Shown here: positions 21,454-64,000 of the stretch, piece after piece
Numbering within the stretch: the first letter of the stretch is position 1
How the letters are laid out: each line of letters begins with the position of its first letter
Assembly (NCBI GenBank): GCA_043809315.1
Contig: JAZDDX010000039.1
Location: 43,918-107,917 of the forward strand
Reading direction: 5' to 3'
DNA length: 64,000 nt
Origin: Pseudomonadota bacterium
GTDB taxonomy: Bacteria > Bdellovibrionota_G > JALEGL01 > DATDPG01
Program-made: the position numbers and the translations under genes
Notes under the pieces: generated by a model
Databases searched by the model: none
Told to the model about the DNA's origin: nothing
The model's input: only the letters and a program-made list of their open reading frames with translations

Positions 21454-23799
21454 GTGCCAAGGAACTTCGAAGCCCCCGATCGGATCCTCGAGCGGGCCCA
21501 AAAAGAGGGAAGAAACTTCCTTTTCGAGCACGAGGTATACGATCTCCTGAAGATCCTCGGGATCGGCTCGCCCGTGCCGTATCGCCTCCTGACCCCCCAA
21601 GAGGCGGCCACGAAAACGTTCTCCTCCTTCGCCGAAGAAGAGTACGTCCTCAAGATCGTCCACCCGCGGATTCTCCACAAGAGCGACGTCGGCGGCGTGC
21701 GCTTCGCCAAACGAGGACAGCTCGAGGAAACAACGCGGGCGATCCTCGCGGAGGTTCCCGGAACCTTCCTGGAAACACTTCTCGCCGACGGCAATCTTCC
21801 CGCGGAGTTTTCGCGCGCTTCCAAACGGGAGCTTTCGGACCGCTTGAAAGCGGAAACGGTCGGCGTCCTCGTGTTGCCGAAGGTCATCTCCTCTTCCGGA
21901 TTCGGGCGCGAACTTCTCTGCGGCCTCCGCGTGACCCGCGAATTCGGTCCGGTCTTGACCGTGGGACTGGGCGGCCTCGACACCGAACTTTTCGCGAAGA
22001 AGTTCCCGAAGGGGGAAGCCGCCGTGAGCACCAGCCCCGTCCTGACCGGAACCGATGCGCTCCGAGCCCTGTTCGAGGAAACCGTTTCGTTCCGAAAACT
22101 GACCGGACGGAGCCGCGATCGTGCCCGAACCGTCGAAGATGCCACGATCGAGACCCTGCTCGGACGGCTGCATACGATGGCGATCCACTATTCGCCGCTC
22201 AACCCGTCAGCCCGTTTCTGGATCGACGAGTTCGAGGTCAACCCGTTCCTCTTCTCGAGCGGCCGGGCGATCCCCGTCGACGGTCTCCTCAAGTTCCGCA
22301 AACCCTCCTCCCTCCCCCCCCACACGACGGTGGCGAAGCTCGACTCTCTCCTGTGCCCCAAGAACATCTGCGTGGTCGGCGTCTCCGCGAAAGGGATGAA
22401 CGTCGGACGGATCATCCTGAAAAACCTTCTGGAAGGGGGAATTTCCGCCGAACGGCTCGCCCTAATTCGCGAGGACGGTGCTCCGGTCGACGGGGTTGCG
22501 GCCTATCGCTCCGTCCCCACCCTCCCCTCCAAATTCGATCTAATGATCGTTTCGATCCCCGCAGCCGACGTTCCGCAGCTCCTGGAGGAGACGGTCCGGA
22601 ACGACAAGGCCGACTCGGTGATCCTCATCACCGGAGGGCTGGGGGAAACGACCGGGGGAAAGACGATCGAAAAAAGGATCCGCGAGATCCTTGCGGAAGG
22701 GAAACAGCAGCGCTCGCGCGGGCCGGTCCTCGTGGGGGGAAACTGCCTCGGGATCGTGAGCGGCCCCGGCGGGTACGACACCCTCTTCATCCCGGAGTCG
22801 CGGATGCCGCGGAACCGGTCGCTCCCGATGGGGAAGAACACCGCGATCTTGAGCCAGTCCGGAGCGTTCATGATCACCCGGATGAACCGGATGGGGAGTT
22901 TCGTCCCCCGATACGCGATCTCGACCGGAAACCAGGTTGACGTCGGCACCGCCGACTTCCTGGAACATCTCGTGACCGACGACGGAGTTCGGACGTTCGG
23001 ATGCTACATCGAGGGGTTCCGCGACCTGGAGGGGATCCGCTTCGCCCTGGCGGCCCAGGAAGCGGTTCGGAGCGGAAAAGAGGTGATCGTCTACAAGGCG
23101 GGGAGGACGAGCGCCGGGAAGAAAGCGGCTGGCGGACACACTGCTGCGGTCGCGGGGGATTGGGACATCGCCCGTGAAATCCTCTCGCAGGCCGGATGCA
23201 TCTTCGCCGAGTCGTTCGAGGAGTGGTCCGATCTCCTGATGCTCTCCTCGCTTCTGGCCAGGAAATCGGTCGGCGCGGGACGGATCGGCGCGATTTCGAA
23301 CGCCGGATGCGAGACCGTCGGCCTGGCCGACCGGACCGGGACCGGACGGGGGCTTCTCGAGCTCGCCCAGCTCAGCGAGTCTACCGTTTCGGAGCTCCGC
23401 GGGGTCCTGGAGCGCGCTCGGCTGACCGAGCTGCAGGAGGTCCGCAATCCGCTCGACTTGACCCCCATGGCGAACGATCGTGCCCATCTCGAGGCGCTTA
23501 AGGCGTTTCACGACGACCCGAACGTCGATCTCCTCGTCCATTCCTGCATCCCGATGACCTCCACGATCAAGGCGATCGATCCGACCGATCCAGAGGGGTA
23601 TGTCCGGATGCTGGTCTCCCTTCTCCCGCCGTTCGTCAAGCCGCTCGTTTGCGTGATCGATGCGGGAACATTGTACGATCCACTGGCCGACGCGCTCTTC
23701 AAAGCGGGGATCCCGGTTTTCCGGTCGATCGACCGGGCGGTGATGGCGCTCACACGATGGGCGACCCGACATCGGAGCTATCGTCCGAAAGGAGCGTAG
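21454..23799 (+). CDS. ADP-forming acyl-CoA synthetase (fused ATP-grasp + CoA-binding/ligase domains)
   Basis: VLKIVHPRILHKSDVGGV, EFGPVLTVGLGG, EVNP, GGNCLG, SQSGA, GHTAAVAG phospho-His, NPLDLT. Confidence 0.88.
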   Translation: MPRNFEAPDRILERAQKEGRNFLFEHEVYDLLKILGIGSPVPYRLLTPQEAATKTFSSFAEEEYVLKIVHPRILHKSDVGGVRFAKRGQLEETTRAILAEVPGTFLETLLADGNLPAEFSRASKRELSDRLKAETVGVLVLPKVISSSGFGRELLCGLRVTREFGPVLTVGLGGLDTELFAKKFPKGEAAVSTSPVLTGTDALRALFEETVSFRKLTGRSRDRARTVEDATIETLLGRLHTMAIHYSPLNPSARFWIDEFEVNPFLFSSGRAIPVDGLLKFRKPSSLPPHTTVAKLDSLLCPKNICVVGVSAKGMNVGRIILKNLLEGGISAERLALIREDGAPVDGVAAYRSVPTLPSKFDLMIVSIPAADVPQLLEETVRNDKADSVILITGGLGETTGGKTIEKRIREILAEGKQQRSRGPVLVGGNCLGIVSGPGGYDTLFIPESRMPRNRSLPMGKNTAILSQSGAFMITRMNRMGSFVPRYAISTGNQVDVGTADFLEHLVTDDGVRTFGCYIEGFRDLEGIRFALAAQEAVRSGKEVIVYKAGRTSAGKKAAGGHTAAVAGDWDIAREILSQAGCIFAESFEEWSDLLMLSSLLARKSVGAGRIGAISNAGCETVGLADRTGTGRGLLELAQLSESTVSELRGVLERARLTELQEVRNPLDLTPMANDRAHLEALKAFHDDPNVDLLVHSCIPMTSTIKAIDPTDPEGYVRMLVSLLPPFVKPLVCVIDAGTLYDPLADALFKAGIPVFRSIDRAVMALTRWATRHRSYRPKGA

Positions 23800-53736: not shown

Positions 53737-55263
53737 ATGAGCCGACAGCTCTTCGCGCGAAAACCTTTCAAACTATTGATGGAAGAGATGGCGGGGGAGA
53801 ACCGCCTCCGCCGCATTCTCGGGCCCGTCGCTCTCTCCTCCCTGGGAATCGGCGCGATCATCGGCACCGGGATCTTCGTCTTGACCGGGATCACGGCGCA
53901 CGACAAGACCGGCCCGGCGCTCGCCCTGTCGTTCGTGGCAGCCGGCATCACCTGTCTTTTCGCGGCGCTCTCGTATGCGGAGCTTGCGTCGATGGTTCCG
54001 ATCGCCGGGTCGGCCTATACCTATGCGTACGCCACGAGGGGGGAGCTGTTCGCCTGGATCATCGGATGGGATCTGATCCTCGAATATGCCGTCGGCGCCG
54101 GGACCGTTGCCCACGGTTGGTCGCACTATTTTCAGGACTTTATCTCCCTTCTGGGAATCCAGGTCCCCAACGCACTTTCGAAGGCCCCGTTCGATTTCAA
54201 TCCGGAACTCGGGCGCCTCGTCGCGACGGGAACGGTGTTCGACCTTCCGGCCGTCCTGATCGCGTTCGCCATCACAGCGATCCTGGTCAAAGGGATCAAG
54301 GAGAGCGTCCGGTTCAACGCGGTCATCGTGATGATCAAGCTGGCGATCGTTCTGTTCGTGATCGCGGTCGGCGCTTTTTTCGTCAATCCGGCGAACTGGC
54401 ATCCGTTCGCTCCATTCGGCTACAGCGGGATCTCCTTCTTCGGGCACACGATCCTCGGCCAGACCGCCGTCGGGGGGGAACCTCTCGGGATGCTGGCCGG
54501 GGCGGCGATCATCTTCTTTGCGTACATCGGTTTCGACTCGGTCTCGACCCATTCCGAGGAGGCGAAGAACCCGCAGCGGGATGTTCCGATCGGAATCATC
54601 TCCTCTCTTCTGATTTGCACGGTCCTCTACATCGCGGTCTCCCTGGTCTTGACCGGCATGGTTCCGTATCAGGAGATCAACATCGACGCCCCCGTCTCCA
54701 GGGCGTTCGCGCAGGTCGGGATGCCGTGGGCGCACTACATGATCGCCTTCGGGGCACTCGCCGGAATCACATCGGTGCTCTTGGTCATGATGCTGAGCCA
54801 GGCGCGGGTCTTCCTCGCCGTGGCCCGCGACGGGCTTCTGCCGAAGAACTTTTTCGCGGCGGTCCACGAGAAGTTCCGAACCCCCTGGAAGTCGACGATC
54901 GTGACGGGAATCTTCGTCGCCATCCTGGCCGGATTTCTGCCTCTCCGCATCCTCGCGGAGATGGTGAGCATCGGAACGCTTTTCGCGTTCTTCATCACCT
55001 CCGGTGCCGTCCTGATCATGCGGAAAACGAACCCCGGCGCCCCCCGCCCCTTCCGTGCTCCGTGGGTTCCGTTCACCCCAATCATGGGGATGGCGACCTC
55101 GCTTCTCCTCATGTTCTCGCTCCCGGCGGAGAACTGGTGGCGTCTCTTCATCTGGCTCGGAATCGGGCTCGCGATCTACCTCTTCTACGGCCGCAAACAC
55201 AGCGTGATGAAGCATTACCTGGCCCGGGAGGTCCCCCGGGCCCCCGCCGACAACGAGCCATAA
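53737..55263 (+). CDS. Amino-acid permease (APC, cationic amino-acid transporter-like)
   Basis: GIGAIIGTGIF, YAELASMVPIAGSAY, IGWDLILEY, FFAYIGFD, EEAKNPQRD. Confidence 0.92.
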   Translation: MSRQLFARKPFKLLMEEMAGENRLRRILGPVALSSLGIGAIIGTGIFVLTGITAHDKTGPALALSFVAAGITCLFAALSYAELASMVPIAGSAYTYAYATRGELFAWIIGWDLILEYAVGAGTVAHGWSHYFQDFISLLGIQVPNALSKAPFDFNPELGRLVATGTVFDLPAVLIAFAITAILVKGIKESVRFNAVIVMIKLAIVLFVIAVGAFFVNPANWHPFAPFGYSGISFFGHTILGQTAVGGEPLGMLAGAAIIFFAYIGFDSVSTHSEEAKNPQRDVPIGIISSLLICTVLYIAVSLVLTGMVPYQEINIDAPVSRAFAQVGMPWAHYMIAFGALAGITSVLLVMMLSQARVFLAVARDGLLPKNFFAAVHEKFRTPWKSTIVTGIFVAILAGFLPLRILAEMVSIGTLFAFFITSGAVLIMRKTNPGAPRPFRAPWVPFTPIMGMATSLLLMFSLPAENWWRLFIWLGIGLAIYLFYGRKHSVMKHYLAREVPRAPADNEP

Positions 55264-55367: not shown

Positions 55368-56294
55368 ATGTCGATGATGCCGTATCGGCACCTATTGATT
55401 GGATTCCTCTTCCTGGCCGGCGCTTGCGGCGGCAAGACGCGGGCGACCGTTATGAACACCGGAACCGATCCGAAACCGGCCCCCTCCCCGACCCAGCCCT
55501 CCAACGCTCTCTGCAACGGCGGATTGGCCTACTTCGAGGACAAGGACGGTGACAGCTACGGAAACCCGAACGTCATGAGCTGCGAATTCAAGAACGGGTA
55601 TCTGACCACGTCCGGCGACTGCGACGATAACAACAAGGACTCGCATCCCGGGGCGATCGAGCTTCGCGGGGACGGCTCCGACAACAACTGTGACGGACTG
55701 ACCGATGAGGGGGGCCCCTACTACACGCTCTCAGGGAACTGGGCTGATTTCGGAACCTGCACGGTGGTCGGGATCTCGTCTGCGACTTCGATCGACGACC
55801 CGAACAAGGCATTCCTTGCGGCCGACCTGACTCACAACCTGCTTCTGGACACGAACGGGAACGGCATCGACGACGAGCAGCTCCAATTGACGGATGGCGG
55901 GACAGAAACCCCAGCCTATTTCTGGCAACTGGATGCCGCCCTCGGAACCTATTCCGCGGCGGCGACACTCGTTCCCGGACGCGGCTATTTCCTCTTCACG
56001 AACGGAACGGGGGGATTCCGCCAGGTGCTCGGCACCCCGCCGACCGGGCCTGTTAATGTGGATGTCGAGTCTGGGGTATTCAACCTCCTGGCGAACCCGT
56101 TCGATCGGGATATTCCCGACATTCGCAATCTGATCACCCCGGCCGGTGCTCTAAACGGGGAGGTTTTCGTTTACGACGGGAGCTGTATTGAAAGCGCTTC
56201 ATTTGCCCTGAAGAAATTTCAGGGGTTCAAGGTCAAGATCGCGGCCGGGGTCACGTCGATCACGATCAACCCGCCGCTCACCTTCGTCCCGTAG
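55368..56294 (+). CDS. Lipoprotein with MopE-like putative metal-binding motif (paralogue 1)
   Basis: AGAC lipobox; DKDGDSYG and DCDDNNKDSHPGAIELRGDGSDNNCDGLTDE motif. Confidence 0.8.
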   Translation: MSMMPYRHLLIGFLFLAGACGGKTRATVMNTGTDPKPAPSPTQPSNALCNGGLAYFEDKDGDSYGNPNVMSCEFKNGYLTTSGDCDDNNKDSHPGAIELRGDGSDNNCDGLTDEGGPYYTLSGNWADFGTCTVVGISSATSIDDPNKAFLAADLTHNLLLDTNGNGIDDEQLQLTDGGTETPAYFWQLDAALGTYSAAATLVPGRGYFLFTNGTGGFRQVLGTPPTGPVNVDVESGVFNLLANPFDRDIPDIRNLITPAGALNGEVFVYDGSCIESASFALKKFQGFKVKIAAGVTSITINPPLTFVP

Positions 56295-56296
56295 GA

Positions 56297-57253
56297 ATGA
56301 GGATGGAAGTAGCAACGAGATCATTCCGATTCGGCCTTGGCTGCGCCCTCCTCGCTCTGCTCATCTCCTGCGCCGGAAAAACCGACAATCCTTCCCCTCC
56401 TCCCAAACTCACCACGGCAACGTCGACCCCAGATCCGAATGAAGGTCTCTGTAACGGCGGCCTGGCGTGGTACCAGGACACCGACGAGGACGGGTACGGC
56501 GTACCGGACGTCTACAACTGCAACCCGAAACCCGGCTTCGTTCTGGGCACCGAGATGGATTGCAATGAGAACGACCCGACCATTCATCCGAAAGCGATCG
56601 AACTTCTCGGGGATGGGATCGATAACAACTGTGACGGCACGATCGACGAGGCCACCGGAGCCGATCCGACACTCATCGGCAACTGGGCCGATTACCCGAC
56701 AAAAGGTTTTATCGGGGTCTCTTCGGAGGTGGACCTCGACGCGGCAACCGCCTTCCATTCCGTGGATCCGATCTTCAATGTGATCACCAAGCAGCAGCTT
56801 CACATGTGGATACCGTGGAGCGCTACATCCAACGAACCCGCACTTTTCTGGACGCCGGTCTGCTCGCACGGGGTCAGCTGCAATTATGTGAAAGCCACAA
56901 AACTCGTTCCAGGAAAGGGTTATGCGGTGAGTACCTCCGGAAACGGAATCTTTCGTCAACTTCAGGGATCCGCTCGAACGACGCCGGTCGTCGTGACGGT
57001 CACAGGGAACGCGATCAACGCGATCTCCAACCCGTTCAACCAAACGATCAATCTCGTGGATGCGATCAAGAAAGGTGACGGTACAGGAACCATCGACGAT
57101 GTCGTCTGGAAGGATACCGACGGCACGTACTACATCTACGGCCTGAACAACCAACCGTTGACGACCGCGAAGAAATTCCAAGGGTTCTGGCTCGGAGTTC
57201 CCAAGGACGTCACGTCGATCACGATCAACCCGCCGACGGCCCCTGCCCTCTGA
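56297..57253 (+). CDS. Lipoprotein with MopE-like putative metal-binding motif (paralogue 2)
   Basis: LISC lipobox; DTDEDGYG and DCNENDPTIHPKAIELLGDGIDNNCDGTIDE motif. Confidence 0.8.
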   Translation: MRMEVATRSFRFGLGCALLALLISCAGKTDNPSPPPKLTTATSTPDPNEGLCNGGLAWYQDTDEDGYGVPDVYNCNPKPGFVLGTEMDCNENDPTIHPKAIELLGDGIDNNCDGTIDEATGADPTLIGNWADYPTKGFIGVSSEVDLDAATAFHSVDPIFNVITKQQLHMWIPWSATSNEPALFWTPVCSHGVSCNYVKATKLVPGKGYAVSTSGNGIFRQLQGSARTTPVVVTVTGNAINAISNPFNQTINLVDAIKKGDGTGTIDDVVWKDTDGTYYIYGLNNQPLTTAKKFQGFWLGVPKDVTSITINPPTAPAL

Positions 57254-57262
57254 TCGATCGTT

Positions 57263-58510
57263 CTACTGCCCGTACTTCTCGATGATCGCTTTCTTGTCCA
57301 ATCCGAGGATGCCGTACTTCTTCCCGACCTTTCTGAACGCCTCGAGTGCCTTGGTCAGCATCGGGATATCGTGATCGGCCGACAACTGCGTCCGAATCCT
57401 CGCCTGCCCCGCCGGGACAACGGGGAAGAAGAAGCCGACGACATAGATCCCCTCCGCAAAGAGATCGCGCGAAACATCCTGGCTCAACTTCGCGTTGTAC
57501 AACATCACCGGGACGATCGGGCTCTCCCCCTCCTTGATGATGAAGCCGGCCTCGGTCAACCCCTTCCGCCAGAACTTCGTGTTCACCTCCAGCTGATCGC
57601 GCCGTTCCGTGGACGCGCTTAAAATTTCGAGAACACGGATCCCGGCGGAGACGATCGGCGGCGGGACCGAGTTACTGAAGAGGCAGGGCCTTGCTTTTTG
57701 TCGGCAGAGATCGACGATCTCCTTCCGCCCGGACACGCAGCCGCCGCTCGCGCCCCCTAAGCCTTTGCCGAGCGTCGTCGTGATGATGTCGATCTTCCCC
57801 ATCACCCCTTTGAGCTCGTGAACCCCGCGCCCCGTCTTCCCGATGAAGCCGCTTCCGTGGCTGTCGTCGACGAAGACAAGGGCATCGTATTTCTCTCCCA
57901 GCGCCACGATCTCGTTCAACGGAGCGATATCGCCGTCCATGGAGAAGACGCCGTCGGTCAGGATCATCCGGACCCGCTTGTCGGCATGTTCCTGGAGCTT
58001 CTGCTCGAGATGCTCCATGTCGGAGTGCTTGTAGGTATCGTGCATCGCCTTGCAGAGGCGGATCCCGTCGATGATCGACGCGTGAACCAACCGGTCGGAG
58101 ATCATGATGTCCTCGGGCGTAAGGATCGATTCAAAAACCCCGGCGTTCGCCTCCATGCAGCTCGGGAAGAGGATCGTGTCCTCCGTGCCGAGGAACTCGG
58201 AGAGCTTCTCCTCGAGTTTCCGGTGGATATCCTGCGTCCCGCAGATGAACGGCACGCTCGACATCCCATACCCACGCTCATCGAGCCCCGCGTGCGCCGC
58301 CTTCAGCACCTCCGGATGGCTCGAGAGACCGAGGTAGTTGTTCGAGCAAAGATTGATCACCGACTTCGGAGCCGCACCCGCCGGAAACTCGACCCGAATC
58401 GTCGCCGCTTGCGGGGAATGGATGTACCGGGGCTCTTTGAAGAGCCCTTCGTTCTTCAGGCGAGTCAGTTCGTTCTTCCACGCCTCCTTGACCGCTGCCG
58501 GATATGCCAT
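57263..58510 (-). CDS. kbl: PLP-dependent alpha-oxoamine synthase, glycine C-acetyltransferase (Kbl)-like
   Basis: NLCSNNYLGL, HASIIDG, TDGVFSMDG, DDSH, TTLGKGLGGASGG (PLP Lys), LFSNS, ARIRTQ. Confidence 0.85.
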   Translation of the reverse strand: MAYPAAVKEAWKNELTRLKNEGLFKEPRYIHSPQAATIRVEFPAGAAPKSVINLCSNNYLGLSSHPEVLKAAHAGLDERGYGMSSVPFICGTQDIHRKLEEKLSEFLGTEDTILFPSCMEANAGVFESILTPEDIMISDRLVHASIIDGIRLCKAMHDTYKHSDMEHLEQKLQEHADKRVRMILTDGVFSMDGDIAPLNEIVALGEKYDALVFVDDSHGSGFIGKTGRGVHELKGVMGKIDIITTTLGKGLGGASGGCVSGRKEIVDLCRQKARPCLFSNSVPPPIVSAGIRVLEILSASTERRDQLEVNTKFWRKGLTEAGFIIKEGESPIVPVMLYNAKLSQDVSRDLFAEGIYVVGFFFPVVPAGQARIRTQLSADHDIPMLTKALEAFRKVGKKYGILGLDKKAIIEKYGQ

Positions 58511-58514
58511 GGGA

Positions 58515-58778
58515 CTACCCTTTCTTCGCGACGAACCTGTCGACGAGTGCCACGATGTTGTTGATCGTATCGAACGCCTCGGGGGTCGCCTCGTTGTCCG
58601 GAAGCGAGATCGAGTACTTCTTCTCGATGAACCGCTTGAGGCTCACCATGCTGAACGAGTCGACGATTCCGCCTGAGATCAGCTTCGTCGTCTCGGTCAG
58701 ATCGGTATCGTTCTCCTCGTCCATGTATTCGTTCCGGATGTAATCCATGATCGTTTTTCTCATCGTCGCGTCGCCCAT
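58515..58778 (-). CDS. Acyl/aminoacyl carrier protein
   Basis: 87 aa, acidic, GIVDSFSMV phosphopantetheine-attachment motif, FDTINNIV; AAGGAG RBS. Confidence 0.88.
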   Translation of the reverse strand: MGDATMRKTIMDYIRNEYMDEENDTDLTETTKLISGGIVDSFSMVSLKRFIEKKYSISLPDNEATPEAFDTINNIVALVDRFVAKKG

Positions 58779-58797
58779 TTGAGTCTCCTTGTTTGGT

Positions 58798-60501
58798 TCA
58801 GTCGTTTTCCAACGTCGAAATGTCGCCGATCTCCTGCCCCCACTCCTTCGCCTTGAGGAGCCGCCGCATGATCTTTCCGCTGCGGGTTTTGGGGAGCTTG
58901 TCCACGAACTCGATCTCCTGCGGCATCGCCAGGGGAGAAAGCCTCTTCCGGACGAAGTTCATGATCGAAAGCTCCTGGTCCCCATCCGGCTTGTACCCCG
59001 GCTTGAGAGCCACAAAAACTTTGACCACCTCCATGTTGACCGGGTCCGGCTTCCCGATCGCCGCACTCTCCGCCACCGCTTCGTGCTCGAGCAGCGCACT
59101 CTCGATCTCGAACGGCCCGACCAGATGCCCCCCGGTGTTGATCACGTCGTCGTCCCGTCCGGAGAACCAGAAATAGCCGTCGGAGTCGATCGAGGCGCGG
59201 TCGCCGCAGATGTACCAGCCGTTCAGGAACTTCTTCAAGAACGTCGGCGTGTTGTTCCAGTAGGTCCGCATCAAGCTCGGGAAGTTCGGCTTGAGTGCGA
59301 GCATCCCGACCTTCCCGACGTCGCGCACCGGCTCGCCGGTCGTTCCGTCGACCACGGTCGCGGTGATCCCGGGGAACGGCTTCCCCATGCTCCCCGGCTT
59401 CACCTTCATCCCGGGAAAGTTGGTCACGACGATCGCCCCGGTCTCCGTCTGCCAGAAGGTGTCGTGGAAATCGAGTTGGAACGCCTCGCGTCCCCAATGC
59501 ACCCCCTCCGGATTGAGCGGCTCTCCGACCGAGCACATGTGACGCAACGATTTGAGGTCGTGTTTGCGCACCGGCTCGACCCCATCCTTCATCAGCATCC
59601 GAATCGCGGTCGGGGCCGTGTACCAGACCGTCACCTTGTGCTTCGCCATCGTCGCGTACCAGCGATCGCTCGAGTACCCCGCATCCAGCACGATCTGCGT
59701 CACCCCCAGCGCCCACGGAGCGATGATGCCGTAGCTCGTCCCGGTCACCCAACCCGGATCGGCGGTACACCAGTAGACGTCGCTCTCCTTGAGATCCAGA
59801 ACGACCTTTCCGGTCAAGTACTGTCCGAAGATGCTGGAATGGACGTGCAACGCCCCTTTCGGTTTCCCGGTGGTACCGCTCGTGTAATGCAGAACGCTCG
59901 GGCTCTCGGCGTACGTTTTGAAAACGGAGTAGGTCGCGACGCGGCTCGACTCCTGGTCAAACGCCACCTCCCCGTCCGCCTCGTGGAGCGGCTTCTTCGT
60001 GGCATCGTGATCGACGACGATCACTTTCTTGAGCTCCGGCAAGCGCTCGCGGATCTTCCGGATCTTCCCGACATGCTTGTGCTGCGTGATGATCGCCACC
60101 GCTTTGCTGTCGTCGGCTCGCTGCCAGACCGACTCCTCGCCGAAGGCGGAGAAGAGCGGCTGCACGATCGCGCCGGTCTTCAAGACCCCCAGGAAGCTGA
60201 TGTAGAGCTCGGGAAGGCGCTCGAGGAAGACACAGACCCGATCTTGCGGTTTGATCCCCTGCTTCGTTAGGAAACTCGCCCAGCCGTTCGTGAGCTCCTT
60301 GAGATCTTGGTAGGTGTACTTCTTGAGCGTCCCTTCGTGGTTCTCGTGGATGAAGGCGAGTTTCGAGCCGCGCCCCTTTTCGACGTTCCGGTCGGTGCAG
60401 AGGTACCCGAGATTCAACGGATCGCCGTCCTTGTACCCGAGCTCTTTTTTCGCCAACTCCCAGGTGATCTGTTCCCTGGCTTTTTCGTAATCAAACGTCA
60501 T
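58798..60501 (-). CDS. acsA: AMP-forming short-chain acyl ligase (acetate--CoA ligase-like)
   Basis: YTSGTTGKPKG, WCTADPGWVTG, VGEPLNP, DTFWQTETG, GRDDDVI, LPKTRSGKIMRR. Confidence 0.85.
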   Translation of the reverse strand: MTFDYEKAREQITWELAKKELGYKDGDPLNLGYLCTDRNVEKGRGSKLAFIHENHEGTLKKYTYQDLKELTNGWASFLTKQGIKPQDRVCVFLERLPELYISFLGVLKTGAIVQPLFSAFGEESVWQRADDSKAVAIITQHKHVGKIRKIRERLPELKKVIVVDHDATKKPLHEADGEVAFDQESSRVATYSVFKTYAESPSVLHYTSGTTGKPKGALHVHSSIFGQYLTGKVVLDLKESDVYWCTADPGWVTGTSYGIIAPWALGVTQIVLDAGYSSDRWYATMAKHKVTVWYTAPTAIRMLMKDGVEPVRKHDLKSLRHMCSVGEPLNPEGVHWGREAFQLDFHDTFWQTETGAIVVTNFPGMKVKPGSMGKPFPGITATVVDGTTGEPVRDVGKVGMLALKPNFPSLMRTYWNNTPTFLKKFLNGWYICGDRASIDSDGYFWFSGRDDDVINTGGHLVGPFEIESALLEHEAVAESAAIGKPDPVNMEVVKVFVALKPGYKPDGDQELSIMNFVRKRLSPLAMPQEIEFVDKLPKTRSGKIMRRLLKAKEWGQEIGDISTLEND

Positions 60502-60869
60502 TTCGAATCCTCCAACACGACAACCGCGGCCGCCCGTTCGTTCTTCGATGTCACCGCCACATGGATCCCAGAAACCCCGAGCTCCTCCGCCCGTTTCTTC
60601 GTCGCTCCCGACAGAACAACGCCGGGAGGACGGTGGGTCACTTCGATGTCATGCCACGACATCTTCCCCCGCTTCCCGGTCCCGAGCGCCTTGAACAGGG
60701 CCTCTTTGGCGGCGAAAGTCGTAGCAGAGGAAGGGAGGAAGGAAGATGATCTGCGACATCTTTTGATTTCGGTTTCGGTGAGGATTTCGGGGAGAAACCC
60801 GCGATCCCGCGCCACAGCCCGCCGAATCTGGCGCACCTCCACTAGATCGATTCCAATCCCAAGCACCAT
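60498..60869 (-). CDS. acpS: Holo-ACP synthase (4'-phosphopantetheinyl transferase)
   Basis: GIGIDLVE, FAAKEALFKALGTG, WHDIEV; stop overlaps the ligase start (ATGA). Confidence 0.9.
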   Translation of the reverse strand: MVLGIGIDLVEVRQIRRAVARDRGFLPEILTETEIKRCRRSSSFLPSSATTFAAKEALFKALGTGKRGKMSWHDIEVTHRPPGVVLSGATKKRAEELGVSGIHVAVTSKNERAAAVVVLEDSK

Positions 60870-60901
60870 TTCGCGGCCGGTCGGCTTATATCAGACCCGG
60901 T

Positions 60902-61798
60902 TCAGCGCGTGAACAGAACGACGACGCCGGCCACGGCGACGAGCGTCCCGACGAGCGTCCGGATCGTGAGCTTCTCCCCATGGAACCGCCAGGAGACGAA
61001 GAGCGCGAGCACCGGGAAGATCGCCGTGATCGACGAAGCAACCCCGGCTTCGATGAACTGGAGAGCGACGAGGGACAGGGTCACACCGAGAAACGGCCCC
61101 AGGAAGGCTCCTCCGATCATGAAAGACGCCGCCCGGCGGTTCCGCAACGCCTCGAACGAACGGAGAGGTCGCTCCCGAAAGGCGGCGAGGAGCCAGACCG
61201 CCACAGCGCCGGCGGCGATCCGGATGACGGTCGCGGAAAGGGCGTCGAGACCGGAATGAAGCGCTTGTTTGGAGATGACGTAACCCCCGGCCTGTCCGAT
61301 CGAGGCCAAGACGCCGGCATAGACCCCGGTCAATGTTGCGCCTCTGGCGTGCACGAGCCATCGGGTCGAGCGGGGTTTCAAAACCGTGAAGATCCCCGCC
61401 AGCGTGAGCGCCATGCCGAGAAGCGCAATCGGTCCCGGGAGTTCCCCCAGGAGGGGCCAAGCAAAAATCAGCGTAAAAAGCGGAGCAGTCGAGGAGAGGA
61501 GCGTCGCGCGACCGGGGCCGAGAATGACGAGAGAGCGGAAGTAGTAATAATCCCCCCAGGCAAACCCGACCAGGCCACTCAACGCGAGAAGCGCCACCTG
61601 CGTCGGCGTGGCCCAGAACGGCCAGGGAGATCCCCGGGTGATGAGAAGCGCGGTGGCAAGGAAAAGACCGGCAACGGTGATCCGAAGGCGGTTTAGGACA
61701 ACGGCCCCCATCCGTTTCCCGGCGGCGGCAAATAGATTTGAACTCATCGCCCAGCAGACCGCCGTGCCGAGCGCCGCTAATTCTCCGGCGTATTTCAT
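60902..61798 (-). CDS. EamA/DMT-family transporter
   Basis: About 10 TM helices in two EamA repeats (GELAALGTAVCWA, LNRLR, GEKLT). Confidence 0.88.
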   Translation of the reverse strand: MKYAGELAALGTAVCWAMSSNLFAAAGKRMGAVVLNRLRITVAGLFLATALLITRGSPWPFWATPTQVALLALSGLVGFAWGDYYYFRSLVILGPGRATLLSSTAPLFTLIFAWPLLGELPGPIALLGMALTLAGIFTVLKPRSTRWLVHARGATLTGVYAGVLASIGQAGGYVISKQALHSGLDALSATVIRIAAGAVAVWLLAAFRERPLRSFEALRNRRAASFMIGGAFLGPFLGVTLSLVALQFIEAGVASSITAIFPVLALFVSWRFHGEKLTIRTLVGTLVAVAGVVVLFTR

Positions 61799-61831
61799 GA
61801 TGAGCTCCCCGCTTCGGGGAGACTTCTACTA

Positions 61832-62722
61832 TCAGTCGATGAACCGTTTGTCCTGTGTCAGCTGCTTCCTCAATTCGTCAATCTTCATCTTGTCCTTGTT
61901 CGAAATCGTGATCCCTGTCGTGGCGAACCGCCGCATCGCTTGAACACCCTTATCCGACGTATGATACCGGACCGTCGTCAGTTCCGGCATGAGACCCCGG
62001 TTCGTCTTCTCAATGAAGAGTGCCCGCGCATTGAAATCTGCGGTCTCCCGCGCCAGGTTCTGAAGTGTACCCGACACCGGCGGGCCGACGACGTACAGGT
62101 TGTCGTCCGATCCCAAGTACAGGCCCGGAGCCATCTTGAACGTCTTATCGAAAAACTTGGCATTGGCCTCGCTGCTGATCTGCTTGGCGCGTTCCAACGG
62201 TTCGTTCATCTTGAACTTGGAAACCGTGCTAACCATCTGATCGAAATTCGCCAGGTCGCCCACCTTCAGATTCCCTTTGCGATCGTTCAGAACGTTTTCC
62301 TGCTCATCGAGATATCGATCCAGGACGTCCGCGCAAAGTTCATTGAAATGCTTCGTGCTCTTGAGAACCGCCTTCTTGAGATCTTCGGCCTGGAGATCCG
62401 CCCCCAAACTTTCGAGAACATCCATCCGTTTTTTCAGGAACTGTAGGTCCGTGAGATCGGATTCTCCAACAACGTCTTTCTTGTGATCATCCAGAGTAGT
62501 CTCCAGCGCATCGACCGCTTTCTTGTAGTTCTCGATCAGGGGCTTCAGAGCTGCCTCGGTCGCTTCGAAGCTCAGCTTCTTGCCGAGAACCTCCGCTACC
62601 GCATGATGAGCCTCGCGAAACTTATCGACGACGCTCTTCTCGATCGCCAGCGCCCGACCGCTGAAGAGAAGTGCCAAACTGGTGCTGAATAAAATCGACG
62701 CGCGAACGGCAGATTTGATCAT
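61832..62722 (-). CDS. Hypothetical secreted, largely helical protein
   Basis: AAGGAG RBS, signal peptide ending ALA-IE, charged helical body. Confidence 0.65.
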   Translation of the reverse strand: MIKSAVRASILFSTSLALLFSGRALAIEKSVVDKFREAHHAVAEVLGKKLSFEATEAALKPLIENYKKAVDALETTLDDHKKDVVGESDLTDLQFLKKRMDVLESLGADLQAEDLKKAVLKSTKHFNELCADVLDRYLDEQENVLNDRKGNLKVGDLANFDQMVSTVSKFKMNEPLERAKQISSEANAKFFDKTFKMAPGLYLGSDDNLYVVGPPVSGTLQNLARETADFNARALFIEKTNRGLMPELTTVRYHTSDKGVQAMRRFATTGITISNKDKMKIDELRKQLTQDKRFID

Positions 62723-62911
62723 CGGACGGTCTCCTTTTTCGAAGAACGGGGATCCGGCTAATTATAATGGATGGGCCTGGCCCCGGACACAGGAATAATG
62801 CGTCGCGGCCATATCGAGGATCCAGACGCTTGCTCTTGCTCGGTGCCGGGAAATGGCGCGGATTCGGAATTCTGGCAACGCCTAAGGTGTTGTATTTATA
62901 TCGTGTTTCGC

Positions 62912-62926
62912 AGGCACGTTCTTTGC
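62912..62926 (+). promoter_or_regulatory. Sigma-54 (-24/-12) promoter
   Basis: AGGCACG-TTCT-TTGC with exact spacing, preceded by an AT-rich tract at 62883-62901. Confidence 0.6.
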
Positions 62927-62955
62927 TCACATCAGGACATTGTGGGGAAAATACT

Positions 62956-64000
62956 GTGAAATCAGCGACGATCCGACTTTGTCTTGCGCTGACGCTTCTC
63001 ATGACTGTCCCCTTGGGGCAGGCACGGGAGAACTCTCCGAAATCAGTTTCCTCGAAGAACGGTACGGGGCAACTCGGCTTGCCGGACGAAAAAGAACCCG
63101 ATCCCGCTCGTTTTTCGGAACAGGAGAAAATCCAAGCCATCCATGAGGCCTGCAAATGGTTGGAGGATTGGCTCTATAAGAGGACCACAAAACTCAAGGA
63201 CCAGAAGGTAATGGCCCCTCACGCCGACTACACCCATTTCAACCGGGTCGGCGAGTGGAGTCACAAGCAGCTCCTGGCCGCACAAAATGATGAAGGAACC
63301 TACATTGAATTCGGAGGGGGACTCTTTTCGAAAAACAACGGAAGGAAGCAAGGGAAGCTCATCAACCGACCGATCTGGACGTTTCGATCGTGGAACGTTC
63401 TCTGGTCACGCTCGCCAACATGACGGGTCGGTCCAGAGACAAATCAAAGATAAATGTACCGAAACATTTTCCGGGAGGTCCTCCCGAAACCGAATTGACG
63501 GAACTGGGCGAATTTCCGGACAACACGCCGGCAGAGCAGTTCAAGGGGTTGATCCCCTTCCGCTATCTCACCAGCTCGAACCTCATGCAAGCCGTCATGG
63601 TAGGCCATTCGTCCTATCCGAATCTCGAACGCGCATTTTCACAAAAATATTACGACCAGTACGAAAAGCCGATGGTTGCCGAACTTCAGAAAATAATTGA
63701 TGAAACGGAATATCGAGAACTGACGAAGGTGCGCCCGGCAACCTTCTCACCGATCATTATTCGAGGAATTCTTCGGGAAGAGGTGGGATTCAACGGGTAC
63801 GTCCTGCCGGATTCGTTGGGCATGGGCTCGGTCAGAAAGTATGTCGAAAAATTCAAACAGACGGAAGAAACGAAGAGAATCCCGACCTCAGCCCTGACCG
63901 TGATTCTGGCCGTCTATGCGGGGATCGACAGCGTCTTCGGCCTTTCGCAGGAGTATATTGAGGATGCTTACGACTATGTTACGGAATATCGAAGGAACAA
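62956..64000 (+). pseudogene. Secreted GH3 (NagZ-like) glycoside hydrolase, frameshifted near 63316-63335, 3' end off the window
   Basis: GTG 62956 with signal peptide and MAPHAD segment in frame 1. A second frame, open from 63309 to the end, carries KHFPG, LIPFR, AVMVGH, PATFSPIII.GILREEVGFNG.VLPDSLGMG and AGID. Confidence 0.7.

Follow-up and report, generated by a model that had tools for sequence, protein, structure and literature searches.

The 64,000-nucleotide stretch of DNA analysed here, called the window throughout (contig JAZDDX010000039.1, positions 43,918–107,917, assembly GCA_043809315.1; genome G000), carries on its minus strand five co-directional genes (57263–61798) that encode an EamA transporter, an AcpS-type phosphopantetheinyl transferase (PPTase), an Acs-type ligase, a small carrier protein and a Kbl-type synthase. 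The last four recur as a conserved unit, hereafter the cassette, which is real, widespread and misannotated. The chemistry proposed for it is putative: the reaction of Kbl would take place on a private carrier instead of on coenzyme A (CoA). With the direction of the reaction left aside, we regard this as somewhat better than an even bet, and the version that runs in the activating, condensing direction is given a probability of roughly 0.37.

According to the proposed mechanism, AcpS would place phosphopantetheine on S41 of the carrier, the ligase would convert acetate and ATP into acetyl-AMP and then hand the acetyl group to the carrier thiol, and the synthase would interconvert acetyl-S-carrier and glycine with 2-amino-3-ketobutyrate (AKB) and the free carrier (Eq. 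1):

acetyl-S-carrier + glycine ↔ AKB + HS-carrier (1)

An unlinked L-threonine 3-dehydrogenase (Tdh), where present, would connect AKB with threonine. In the activating direction the sequence would read acetate + ATP + glycine → AKB → threonine, with aminoacetone as the outcome if AKB is not reduced. A private carrier would uncouple the acetyl/thiol ratio from the cellular acetyl-CoA/CoA pool and could be of use in either direction, by providing an acetyl pool for an ATP-driven uphill condensation or by offering a thiol acceptor for the unstable AKB, with recovery of ATP via a reversed ligase. What is observed is the order of the genes, their conservation, the families to which they belong and their residue patterns; the loading of the carrier, its use by the synthase and the direction of the reaction are inferred. 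An initial annotation of this DNA had come close to the same reading when it proposed an assimilation of acetate and glycine dependent on an acyl carrier protein (ACP); the conservation of the unit and the pocket and cavity residues described below speak for that proposal.

A conserved four-gene unit

In a scan of one genome per species, the carrier was found to be encoded in at least 575 species genomes. Relatives of the carrier at 50–72% identity were present in 6 of 40 relatives of G000, across several phyla, and the ligase-carrier-synthase order was kept in all six. The set of 86 other loci used below consists of the 80 best carrier matches and these six loci from relatives, and thus represents best matches, not a random sample. 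The best 80 carry the labels of 15 named phyla, chiefly Acidobacteriota and candidate phyla, and nearly all derive from metagenome-assembled genomes. Of the 74 loci assessable for the synthase, 70 have it directly after the carrier; 75 of 83 have the ligase directly before the carrier, and 61 of 79 assessable loci have an AcpS upstream of the carrier. AcpS, ligase, carrier and synthase constitute a conserved four-gene unit, and since the gene order recurs in 86 other loci the arrangement lies far beyond chance.

The initial annotation had taken PPTase, ligase, carrier and synthase for one unit, and had named a lack of conserved gene order elsewhere as a point that would speak against it. The acpS-ligase-carrier-synthase order is conserved across genomes, and the grouping is further upheld by the separate clade of the synthase and by a cassette-specific change in the ligase. 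The five-gene co-directional layout given there, with intergenic gaps of 32, −4, 19 and 4 bp in the order EamA, AcpS, ligase, carrier, synthase, was identical in our gene listing, the stop of AcpS overlapping the start of the ligase by 4 bp, and the family assignments were borne out by NCBIfam and Pfam profile scores (Table 1).

Pairwise identities of ligase and synthase co-vary over 60 loci (r = 0.82, with 0 of 999 permutations as high), a correlation that could come from shared descent alone. The window synthase is 82% identical to that of G001, a genome of its own family, and 78–82% identical to synthases of cassettes labelled Acidobacteriota/Vicinamibacterales (L025, L026, L043 and L053). 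Transfer of the cassette between phyla is suggested by the fact that the window proteins are equally close to the Acidobacteriota-labelled cassettes and to G001. The phylum of the window is apparently small, with 17 sampled species.

A number of loci depart from the common arrangement. Three of them (L056, L066 and L084, in genomes G046, G047 and G048) hold Kbl-AcpS-carrier-synthase or AcpS-carrier-synthase without a ligase at the locus, and at L099 and L103 the ligase is retained at another genomic place. At L029, L040 and L045 the ligase and carrier are not followed by a Kbl-type synthase; here a divergent oxoamine synthase, 39–43% identical to both Kbl types, lies upstream on the opposite strand.

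As for the surroundings, a Tdh-like gene lies within 10 kb of the cassette at 9 of the 86 loci and an extra full-length Kbl-type paralog beside it at 17. Clustering of the neighbouring genes placed Tdh-like genes at 8 loci and every other cluster at no more than 6 of 87, two of the minor clusters being identified as aconitase (6 loci) and isocitrate dehydrogenase (4 loci); these counts are rough, since the greedy open reading frame (ORF) caller that was used picked antisense ORFs in GC-rich loci. At the two closest loci, and in G027 and G032, the flanking genes were unrelated and a shared partner was not found.

Residue patterns in synthase, ligase and carrier

The synthase scored above the cut-offs of TIGR01822 (Kbl, 566.1 bits against 493) and NF005394 (563.1 against 460), is 55% identical to E. 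coli Kbl, and failed all three models of serine palmitoyltransferase (SPT), with 305.7, 260.2 and 231.8 bits against cut-offs of 640, 500 and 670. The initial annotation had called for a tree of the synthase. Such a tree was computed from 89 sequences, 69 of them cassette synthases and 17 paralogs encoded at the same loci, with the Kbl and BioF of E. coli and the second oxoamine synthase of the genome making up the remainder. All 69 cassette synthases fall into a single clade (support of 100 in the Shimodaira–Hasegawa-like approximate likelihood ratio test, SH-aLRT), which is nested among canonical Kbl, including that of E. coli, with BioF as a distant outgroup. The synthase thus groups inside Kbl as a clade of its own.

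The Schiff-base lysine (K249 in the window, K244 in E. coli) is invariant in the 69 cassette synthases and in 16 of 16 canonical ones. The same holds for seven residues of the substrate cavity (E. coli N50, V79, H136, H213, L272, F273 and R368), which the window protein shares and which were defined from structures of C. necator Kbl (PMC9814548). Since all cavity residues are kept, glycine and a two-carbon acyl group are the natural reading, and the acyl and amino-acid chemistry of the synthase looks Kbl-like (glycine, AKB, two-carbon acyl). The initial annotation had envisaged condensation with glycine or another small amino acid; glycine fits the Kbl cavity, whereas other amino acids are not favoured. 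Outside the list of cavity residues, the cassette synthases bear a C-terminal extension and a clade signature (Y108F, F112M/L, N135V, E160H, R164K, L264C, S268A, L298R, F309W, V336K and V369T in E. coli numbering), the latter defined in a comparison that omitted the divergent paralogs L029 and L045, the second synthase of the genome on contig C42, and BioF. Some feature of the enzyme other than its acyl and amino-acid chemistry is thus altered throughout the clade. The carrier and AcpS in the same operon, the separate clade and the clade-specific substitutions together suggest a carrier protein, rather than free CoA, as the thiol partner of the synthase.

A predicted complex of the synthase dimer with the carrier scored 0.51, compared to 0.00 for the best control. 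Three runs agreed in at least 95% of contacts, with a predicted local distance difference test (pLDDT) value of at least 82 for the partner. In the corresponding benchmark 58 of 80 solved complexes and 2 of 110 mismatched pairs attained this mark; with a score no higher than 0.60 it was attained by only 7 of the 80, along with the two mismatches that passed. The prediction consequently lends weak backing to a contact between synthase and carrier.

The ligase scored above the cut-off of the acetate-CoA ligase model NF003313 (752.4 bits against 729) and far under those of long-chain ligase models. In an alignment of 74 cassette ligases with E. coli Acs, whose numbering is used here, the acetate pocket V310/T311/V386/W414, a residue list that we take from the literature on S. 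enterica Acs, is invariant in all 74, as are G524, R194, R584 and the catalytic K609. The tryptophan of the WQTETG motif to which the initial annotation had pointed is present in the alignment, and loading with acetate or propionate, as proposed there, agrees with the invariant acetate-type pocket for the former, while propionate is not favoured by it. Conversely, the position of R526 is occupied by Leu in all 74 cassette ligases, whereas it is Arg in E. coli Acs and in 9g79, the closest solved structure (552 bits). The name of this entry, "Acetyl-coenzyme A synthetase", is all that the match itself provides, and we take the protein to be of the Bacillus AcsA class. R191, R526 and R584 have been described as three highly conserved arginines of Acs on which the binding of CoA and the thioester-forming step depend, be it directly or indirectly (PMC10455477). 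Of this set, R584 is kept in the cassette ligases and R526 is lost, and the position aligned to R191 is P, G, A or S in at least 63 of 74, in a stretch that aligns poorly. The exchange of R526 for Leu is compatible with a different thiol acceptor without proving one.

The carrier shows the phosphopantetheine serine, S41, in a block GIVDSFSMVSL; this block, including the D40-S41 pair, is invariant in an alignment of 68 carriers, which are acidic (median pI 4.6). No Pfam match was obtained for the carrier. Its best NCBIfam matches, all under their cut-offs, are to specialised carriers (ACP_for_OlsHI, AmcB, AsbD and DltC), and among solved structures it comes closest to type II peptidyl and D-alanyl carriers (PltL, PigG and DltC), not to fatty-acid ACP. 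An identity as the OlsHI ornithine-lipid carrier was rejected at 61.8 bits against a cut-off of 130; that pathway is reported to use a GH3-like enzyme (PMC12493201). AcpS contains an ACPS domain (PF01648, 54.2 bits), and because a second AcpS-like gene is located at C35:51440–51799, the cassette copy is an extra, dedicated one. Elsewhere in the genome, at C38:96063–97744, an AMP-binding ligase (474 aa) is followed directly by a 74-aa ORF 30% identical to the cassette carrier, which makes a second ligase-carrier pair.

Table 1. The five co-directional genes of the window
Feature	Position in window	Strand	Length and profile or motif
EamA/DMT transporter	60902–61798	minus	298 aa; Pfam PF00892, 131.4 bits
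AcpS-type 4'-phosphopantetheinyl transferase	60498–60869	minus	123 aa; TIGR00516, 82.6 bits (cut-off 59.8)
Acs-type adenylate-forming ligase (572-aa AcsA class), proposed acetate:carrier-protein ligase	58798–60501	minus	567 aa; NF003313
Stand-alone carrier protein	58515–58778	minus	87 aa; motif GGIVDSFSMVSLK
Kbl-type pyridoxal-phosphate (PLP) alpha-oxoamine synthase	57263–58510	minus	415 aa; TIGR01822

Upstream of EamA, at a distance of 33 bp, lies a gene (61832–62722, minus strand) whose 296-aa product begins with what looks like a signal peptide, belongs to no family in the profile searches and had no match in the cassette loci of the six relatives; the G+C content falls from about 0.60 to 0.52–0.56 across 61800–64000. 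Two tandem paralogs of about 310 aa on the plus strand (55368–56294 and 56297–57253) converge on the 3' end of the cassette, each with one MopE-type putative metal-binding motif, a lipoprotein-like N-terminal leader and no NCBIfam match. They are preceded by an APC-family amino-acid permease (508 aa, 53737–55263, plus strand), 2 kb from the cassette, and this in turn by two ABC-2 type permease genes. A scan for promoters and terminators was uninformative: where 1.3 promoter-like and 5.9 terminator-like sites were expected, 1 and 7 were found, respectively. The Rfam scan of the window gave no family at gathering score and seven cassette loci yielded only two tRNAs, so that a riboswitch or other upstream RNA was dropped.

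Direction of the reaction and competing explanations

G000 (2.42 Mb, 96% complete) has no Kbl-grade gene besides the cassette synthase and no Acs-grade ligase besides that of the cassette (next best 124 bits); acetate kinase was not found there. The initial annotation had remarked on the lack of tdh and fab genes, which is true of the window and not of the whole genome: two ketoacyl-synthase matches lie on contigs C29 and C35, and the only Tdh-grade match, an L-threonine 3-dehydrogenase equivalog (434.7 bits against a cut-off of 380), is found on C10 among unrelated genes, the absence of tdh being local only. This Tdh has no candidate partner other than the cassette synthase, since the genome encodes no further Kbl. 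A 781-aa ORF in the window (21454–23799, plus strand), with ATP-grasp_5, CoA_binding_2 and Succ_CoA_lig domains and without a GNAT domain, looks like an ADP-forming acetyl-CoA synthetase, and on account of this resemblance G000 probably has a separate enzyme linking acetyl-CoA, acetate and ATP. A membrane H+-pyrophosphatase and gcvT are also present. The second oxoamine synthase of the genome (C42:8402–9541) is SPT-like, with 568.2 bits on the CFB SPT model (cut-off 640). It stands directly after a Zn-dependent alcohol-dehydrogenase-like gene, and this pair (C42:6983–9541) may perform the first step of sphingolipid or sulfonolipid synthesis.

Within the family of the window, the cassette and the classical gene pair are complementary. 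G002 and G003 have an adjacent tdh and Kbl-like gene (476.2 and 470.7 bits, under the cut-off of 493) and no cassette, whereas in G000 and G001 the cassette is accompanied by an unlinked Tdh and its synthase is the sole Kbl. The pattern of G000 also occurs in G015, a genome of the same phylum. The phylum, as far as sampled, lacks thrC throughout: at the TIGR00260 cut-off the gene was detected in none of its 17 sampled genomes (G000–G016), cassette-holding or not, compared to 14 of 14 control genomes with thrC. In G000 itself the best PALP-family ORFs are cysteine-synthase-like or far under the ThrC cut-offs, a weak ThrC-like protein at C20:93012–94409 reaching 95.8 bits against 303. Because of this shortage of thrC, the cassette together with the unlinked Tdh might provide the threonine of the lineage, by a CoA-independent, reversed Tdh/Kbl route, although we hold this to be quite unlikely. 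The cassette as a general substitute for thrC was rejected, as 6 of the 12 cassette genomes checked for this gene possess it, namely all five from different lineages and G038.

Several observations weigh against the proposed reaction on a private carrier, or against its activating direction. With thrC present in half of those 12 genomes, a need for threonine biosynthesis through the cassette is not a general one. The R526-equivalent arginine is also conserved in carrier-loading adenylation domains, so that its loss is no known mark of carrier use; R194, R584 and G524 are kept and the ligase may still use CoA; it passes the NCBI acetate-CoA ligase cut-off and, as the sole Acs-type enzyme of the genome, may be needed as an ordinary Acs. 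The complex prediction falls in the weak band of scores. Among five genomes with ligase-less loci, three (G046, G047 and G048) have no cassette-type ligase elsewhere either, and these are explained by no version of the carrier model. No RNA run is listed among the holders of sampled sequence words from the window, and a single DNA run carries one tenth of them.

Further points on the same side come from a census of Tdh and Kbl in 50 of the 80 locus genomes, whose Tdh count covers the Zn type alone. A Zn-type Tdh exceeded the cut-off in 11 of the 50; 26 had a match at 1e-60 or better and 24 had none at that level. Co-occurrence with tdh, for which the initial annotation had suggested a search, is consequently partial: Tdh-like genes flank some loci, while the over-threshold enzyme occurs in the 11 genomes just mentioned. 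A second Kbl-grade gene was present in 33 of the 50 and a single one in 14 (its identity as the cassette copy was confirmed by coordinates for G051 only). The remaining 3 had no Kbl-grade gene at 1e-120, their cassette synthases being broken or cut by a contig end. Given the 33 genomes with a second gene, the cassette is usually an addition and not a replacement. It is sometimes the sole Kbl, as in G000, and five of the 14 single-Kbl genomes, besides G000, have a Tdh over the cut-off.

The likeliest of the competing explanations keeps the same chemistry and reverses it. Tdh would convert threonine to AKB, the synthase and holo-carrier would yield glycine and acetyl-S-carrier, and the ligase would turn acetyl-S-carrier, AMP and PPi into acetate and ATP. 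In such an ATP-conserving catabolism the private carrier would secure a thiol acceptor for the unstable AKB and permit a high acetyl/thiol ratio. The Tdh-like genes and Kbl paralogs near some of the 86 loci (9 and 17, respectively) point this way, as do the membrane H+-pyrophosphatase and the missing acetate kinase of G000, the amino-acid permease near the cassette, the occurrence of AcpS-carrier-synthase sets free of a ligase, and the labels of the holders, which among the matches listed are mostly anaerobe-type uncultured lineages. In addition, low CoA leads to side reactions of Kbl and AKB decays to aminoacetone, as stated in PMC9814548. However, the ADP-forming acetyl-CoA synthetase-like gene would already offer the ATP gain, the scarcity of Zn-type Tdh over the cut-off weighs on this version as well, and a dedicated PPTase, ligase and carrier are the usual sign of activation pathways. 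To our knowledge no carrier-protein ligase runs physiologically in reverse. We regard the reversed reaction as somewhat unlikely. Between the two directions, the lean towards the activating one is only slight. It is drawn by analogy, since every characterised set of ligase, carrier and PPTase works in that way, and since an ATP-charged acetyl pool would push a condensation that is uphill with acetyl-CoA.

A secondary-metabolite or signal pathway, in which a carrier-bound short acyl group and an amino acid would give an alpha-aminoketone (aminoacetone or a precursor of pyrazines) exported by EamA, was put forward by the initial annotation. The EamA gene precedes the cassette by 32 bp in the same orientation and no terminator is predicted in the gap, AKB spontaneously decarboxylates to aminoacetone, a pyrazine former (PMC9814548), and dedicated carrier systems are typical of secondary metabolism. 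Yet EamA was found by tblastn at none of the 86 other cassette loci, which rules it out as a cassette member and leaves the exported aminoketone without comparative backing; EamA is a local neighbour. Its best NCBIfam match (57.9 bits) is far under the cut-off of 230. The gene has probably been added locally, and its product might transport amino acids or acetate. Moreover, no conserved tailoring enzyme accompanies the cassette, the minor neighbour clusters include aconitase and isocitrate dehydrogenase, the contexts are mostly those of central or amino-acid metabolism, and the substrate cavity is the same as in the Kbl of primary metabolism. An export pathway therefore has only a slim chance of being correct.

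Equally slim is the chance that no carrier coupling occurs at all, that is, that the cassette combines an ordinary acetyl-CoA synthetase with a CoA-dependent Kbl while carrier and AcpS serve elsewhere or regulate. Both enzymes pass NCBI equivalog cut-offs, the ligase keeps R194, R584, G524 and K609, and in G000 the cassette copies are the sole Acs-type enzyme and the sole Kbl. On the other hand, hundreds of genomes place the carrier gene between those of the two enzymes, the cassette synthases branch as a single clade apart from the canonical Kbl paralogs of the same genomes, R526 is replaced by Leu in every cassette ligase, and ligase and synthase identities co-vary, though shared descent could suffice for the last. 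Finally, a sphingolipid- or sulfonolipid-type long-chain base pathway, to which the likeness in architecture to the AasR/AcpR/SPT system (acyl-carrier synthetase, specialised carrier and oxoamine synthase; PMC9386255) might point, is extremely unlikely and was rejected, given the failed SPT models (232–306 bits against cut-offs of 500–670) beside a passed Kbl cut-off, the invariant acetate-limiting Trp and remaining pocket, the Kbl-type cavity, the lack of a conserved reductase or N-acyltransferase nearby, and the separate SPT-like synthase on C42, whose presence lowers the likelihood that the cassette serves lipid synthesis.

Implications and relation to known systems

If a Kbl reaction on a private carrier is indeed what the cassette performs, a textbook reaction of threonine and glycine would exist in a second, protein-tethered form in hundreds of poorly known, mostly uncultured species. 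The cassette would then be a compact case for studying why cells tether a two-carbon group to a carrier of its own. A CoA-independent, reversed Tdh/Kbl route to threonine, if true, has been described in no organism, and an adenylate-forming ligase working in reverse to make ATP from acetyl-carrier protein would be comparably new. There are also consequences for annotation. Current pipelines label the two enzymes "acetate-CoA ligase" and "glycine C-acetyltransferase", and metabolic reconstructions thus credit their hosts with the conversion of acetate to acetyl-CoA and with a CoA-dependent threonine cleavage that may not occur; in G000 no gene outside the cassette would justify either annotation. 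Cassette enzymes could be told apart from true Acs and Kbl by two residues, Leu at Acs R526 and Val at Kbl N135. A published description of the acpS-ligase-carrier-synthase set was not found in the literature searched, supplementary files being outside its reach, in line with the initial annotation, to which no characterised pathway with exactly this set was known.

Parts of the arrangement have known counterparts. In DltA/DltC, PltF/PltL and PigI/PigG a small stand-alone carrier is likewise loaded by a separate adenylating enzyme, but amino acids are carried and are passed to transferases or tailoring enzymes, whereas the cassette has an Acs-type acetate loader and a PLP synthase as the predicted consumer. 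Oxoamine synthases that take the acyl group from a carrier protein, not from CoA, are represented by BioF (pimeloyl-ACP), PigH/RedN and the SxtA type, which handle other acyl groups and amino acids in decarboxylative reactions of cofactor or natural-product pathways.

The closest characterised system is AasR/AcpR/SPT of Caulobacter crescentus, Sphingomonas wittichii and E. coli B, in which a specialised carrier is acylated only by its own acyl-carrier synthetase, the carrier-bound acyl group is the preferred thioester donor of SPT, an alpha-oxoamine synthase, and the genes are clustered (PMC9386255). The cassette resembles it in having a carrier with a predicted phosphopantetheine serine, encoded beside its own ligase and synthase. 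The same source gives a long-chain fatty acid and serine as substrates of SPT there and a lipid precursor as product, whereas the cassette has an Acs-derived ligase with an acetate pocket and a synthase of the Kbl clade with a glycine/AKB cavity, includes a dedicated AcpS and has no accompanying lipid genes.

The enzymes themselves are most readily set beside the Tdh-Kbl pair (Kbl structures 1FC4 from E. coli and 7BXQ from C. necator; PMC9814548) and the AMP-forming Acs. In that system canonical Kbl takes free CoA and adjoins tdh. The passed Kbl cut-off, the identical lysine and cavity, the acetate pocket of Acs and the Tdh equivalog in the genome are shared with that system. Conversely, in the cassette a carrier and a PPTase join the ligase and synthase, tdh is unlinked, the synthase belongs to a separate clade with a C-terminal extension, and the ligase has Leu at R526. 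The cassette enzymes probably differ from Kbl and Acs in a defining property, the thiol partner.

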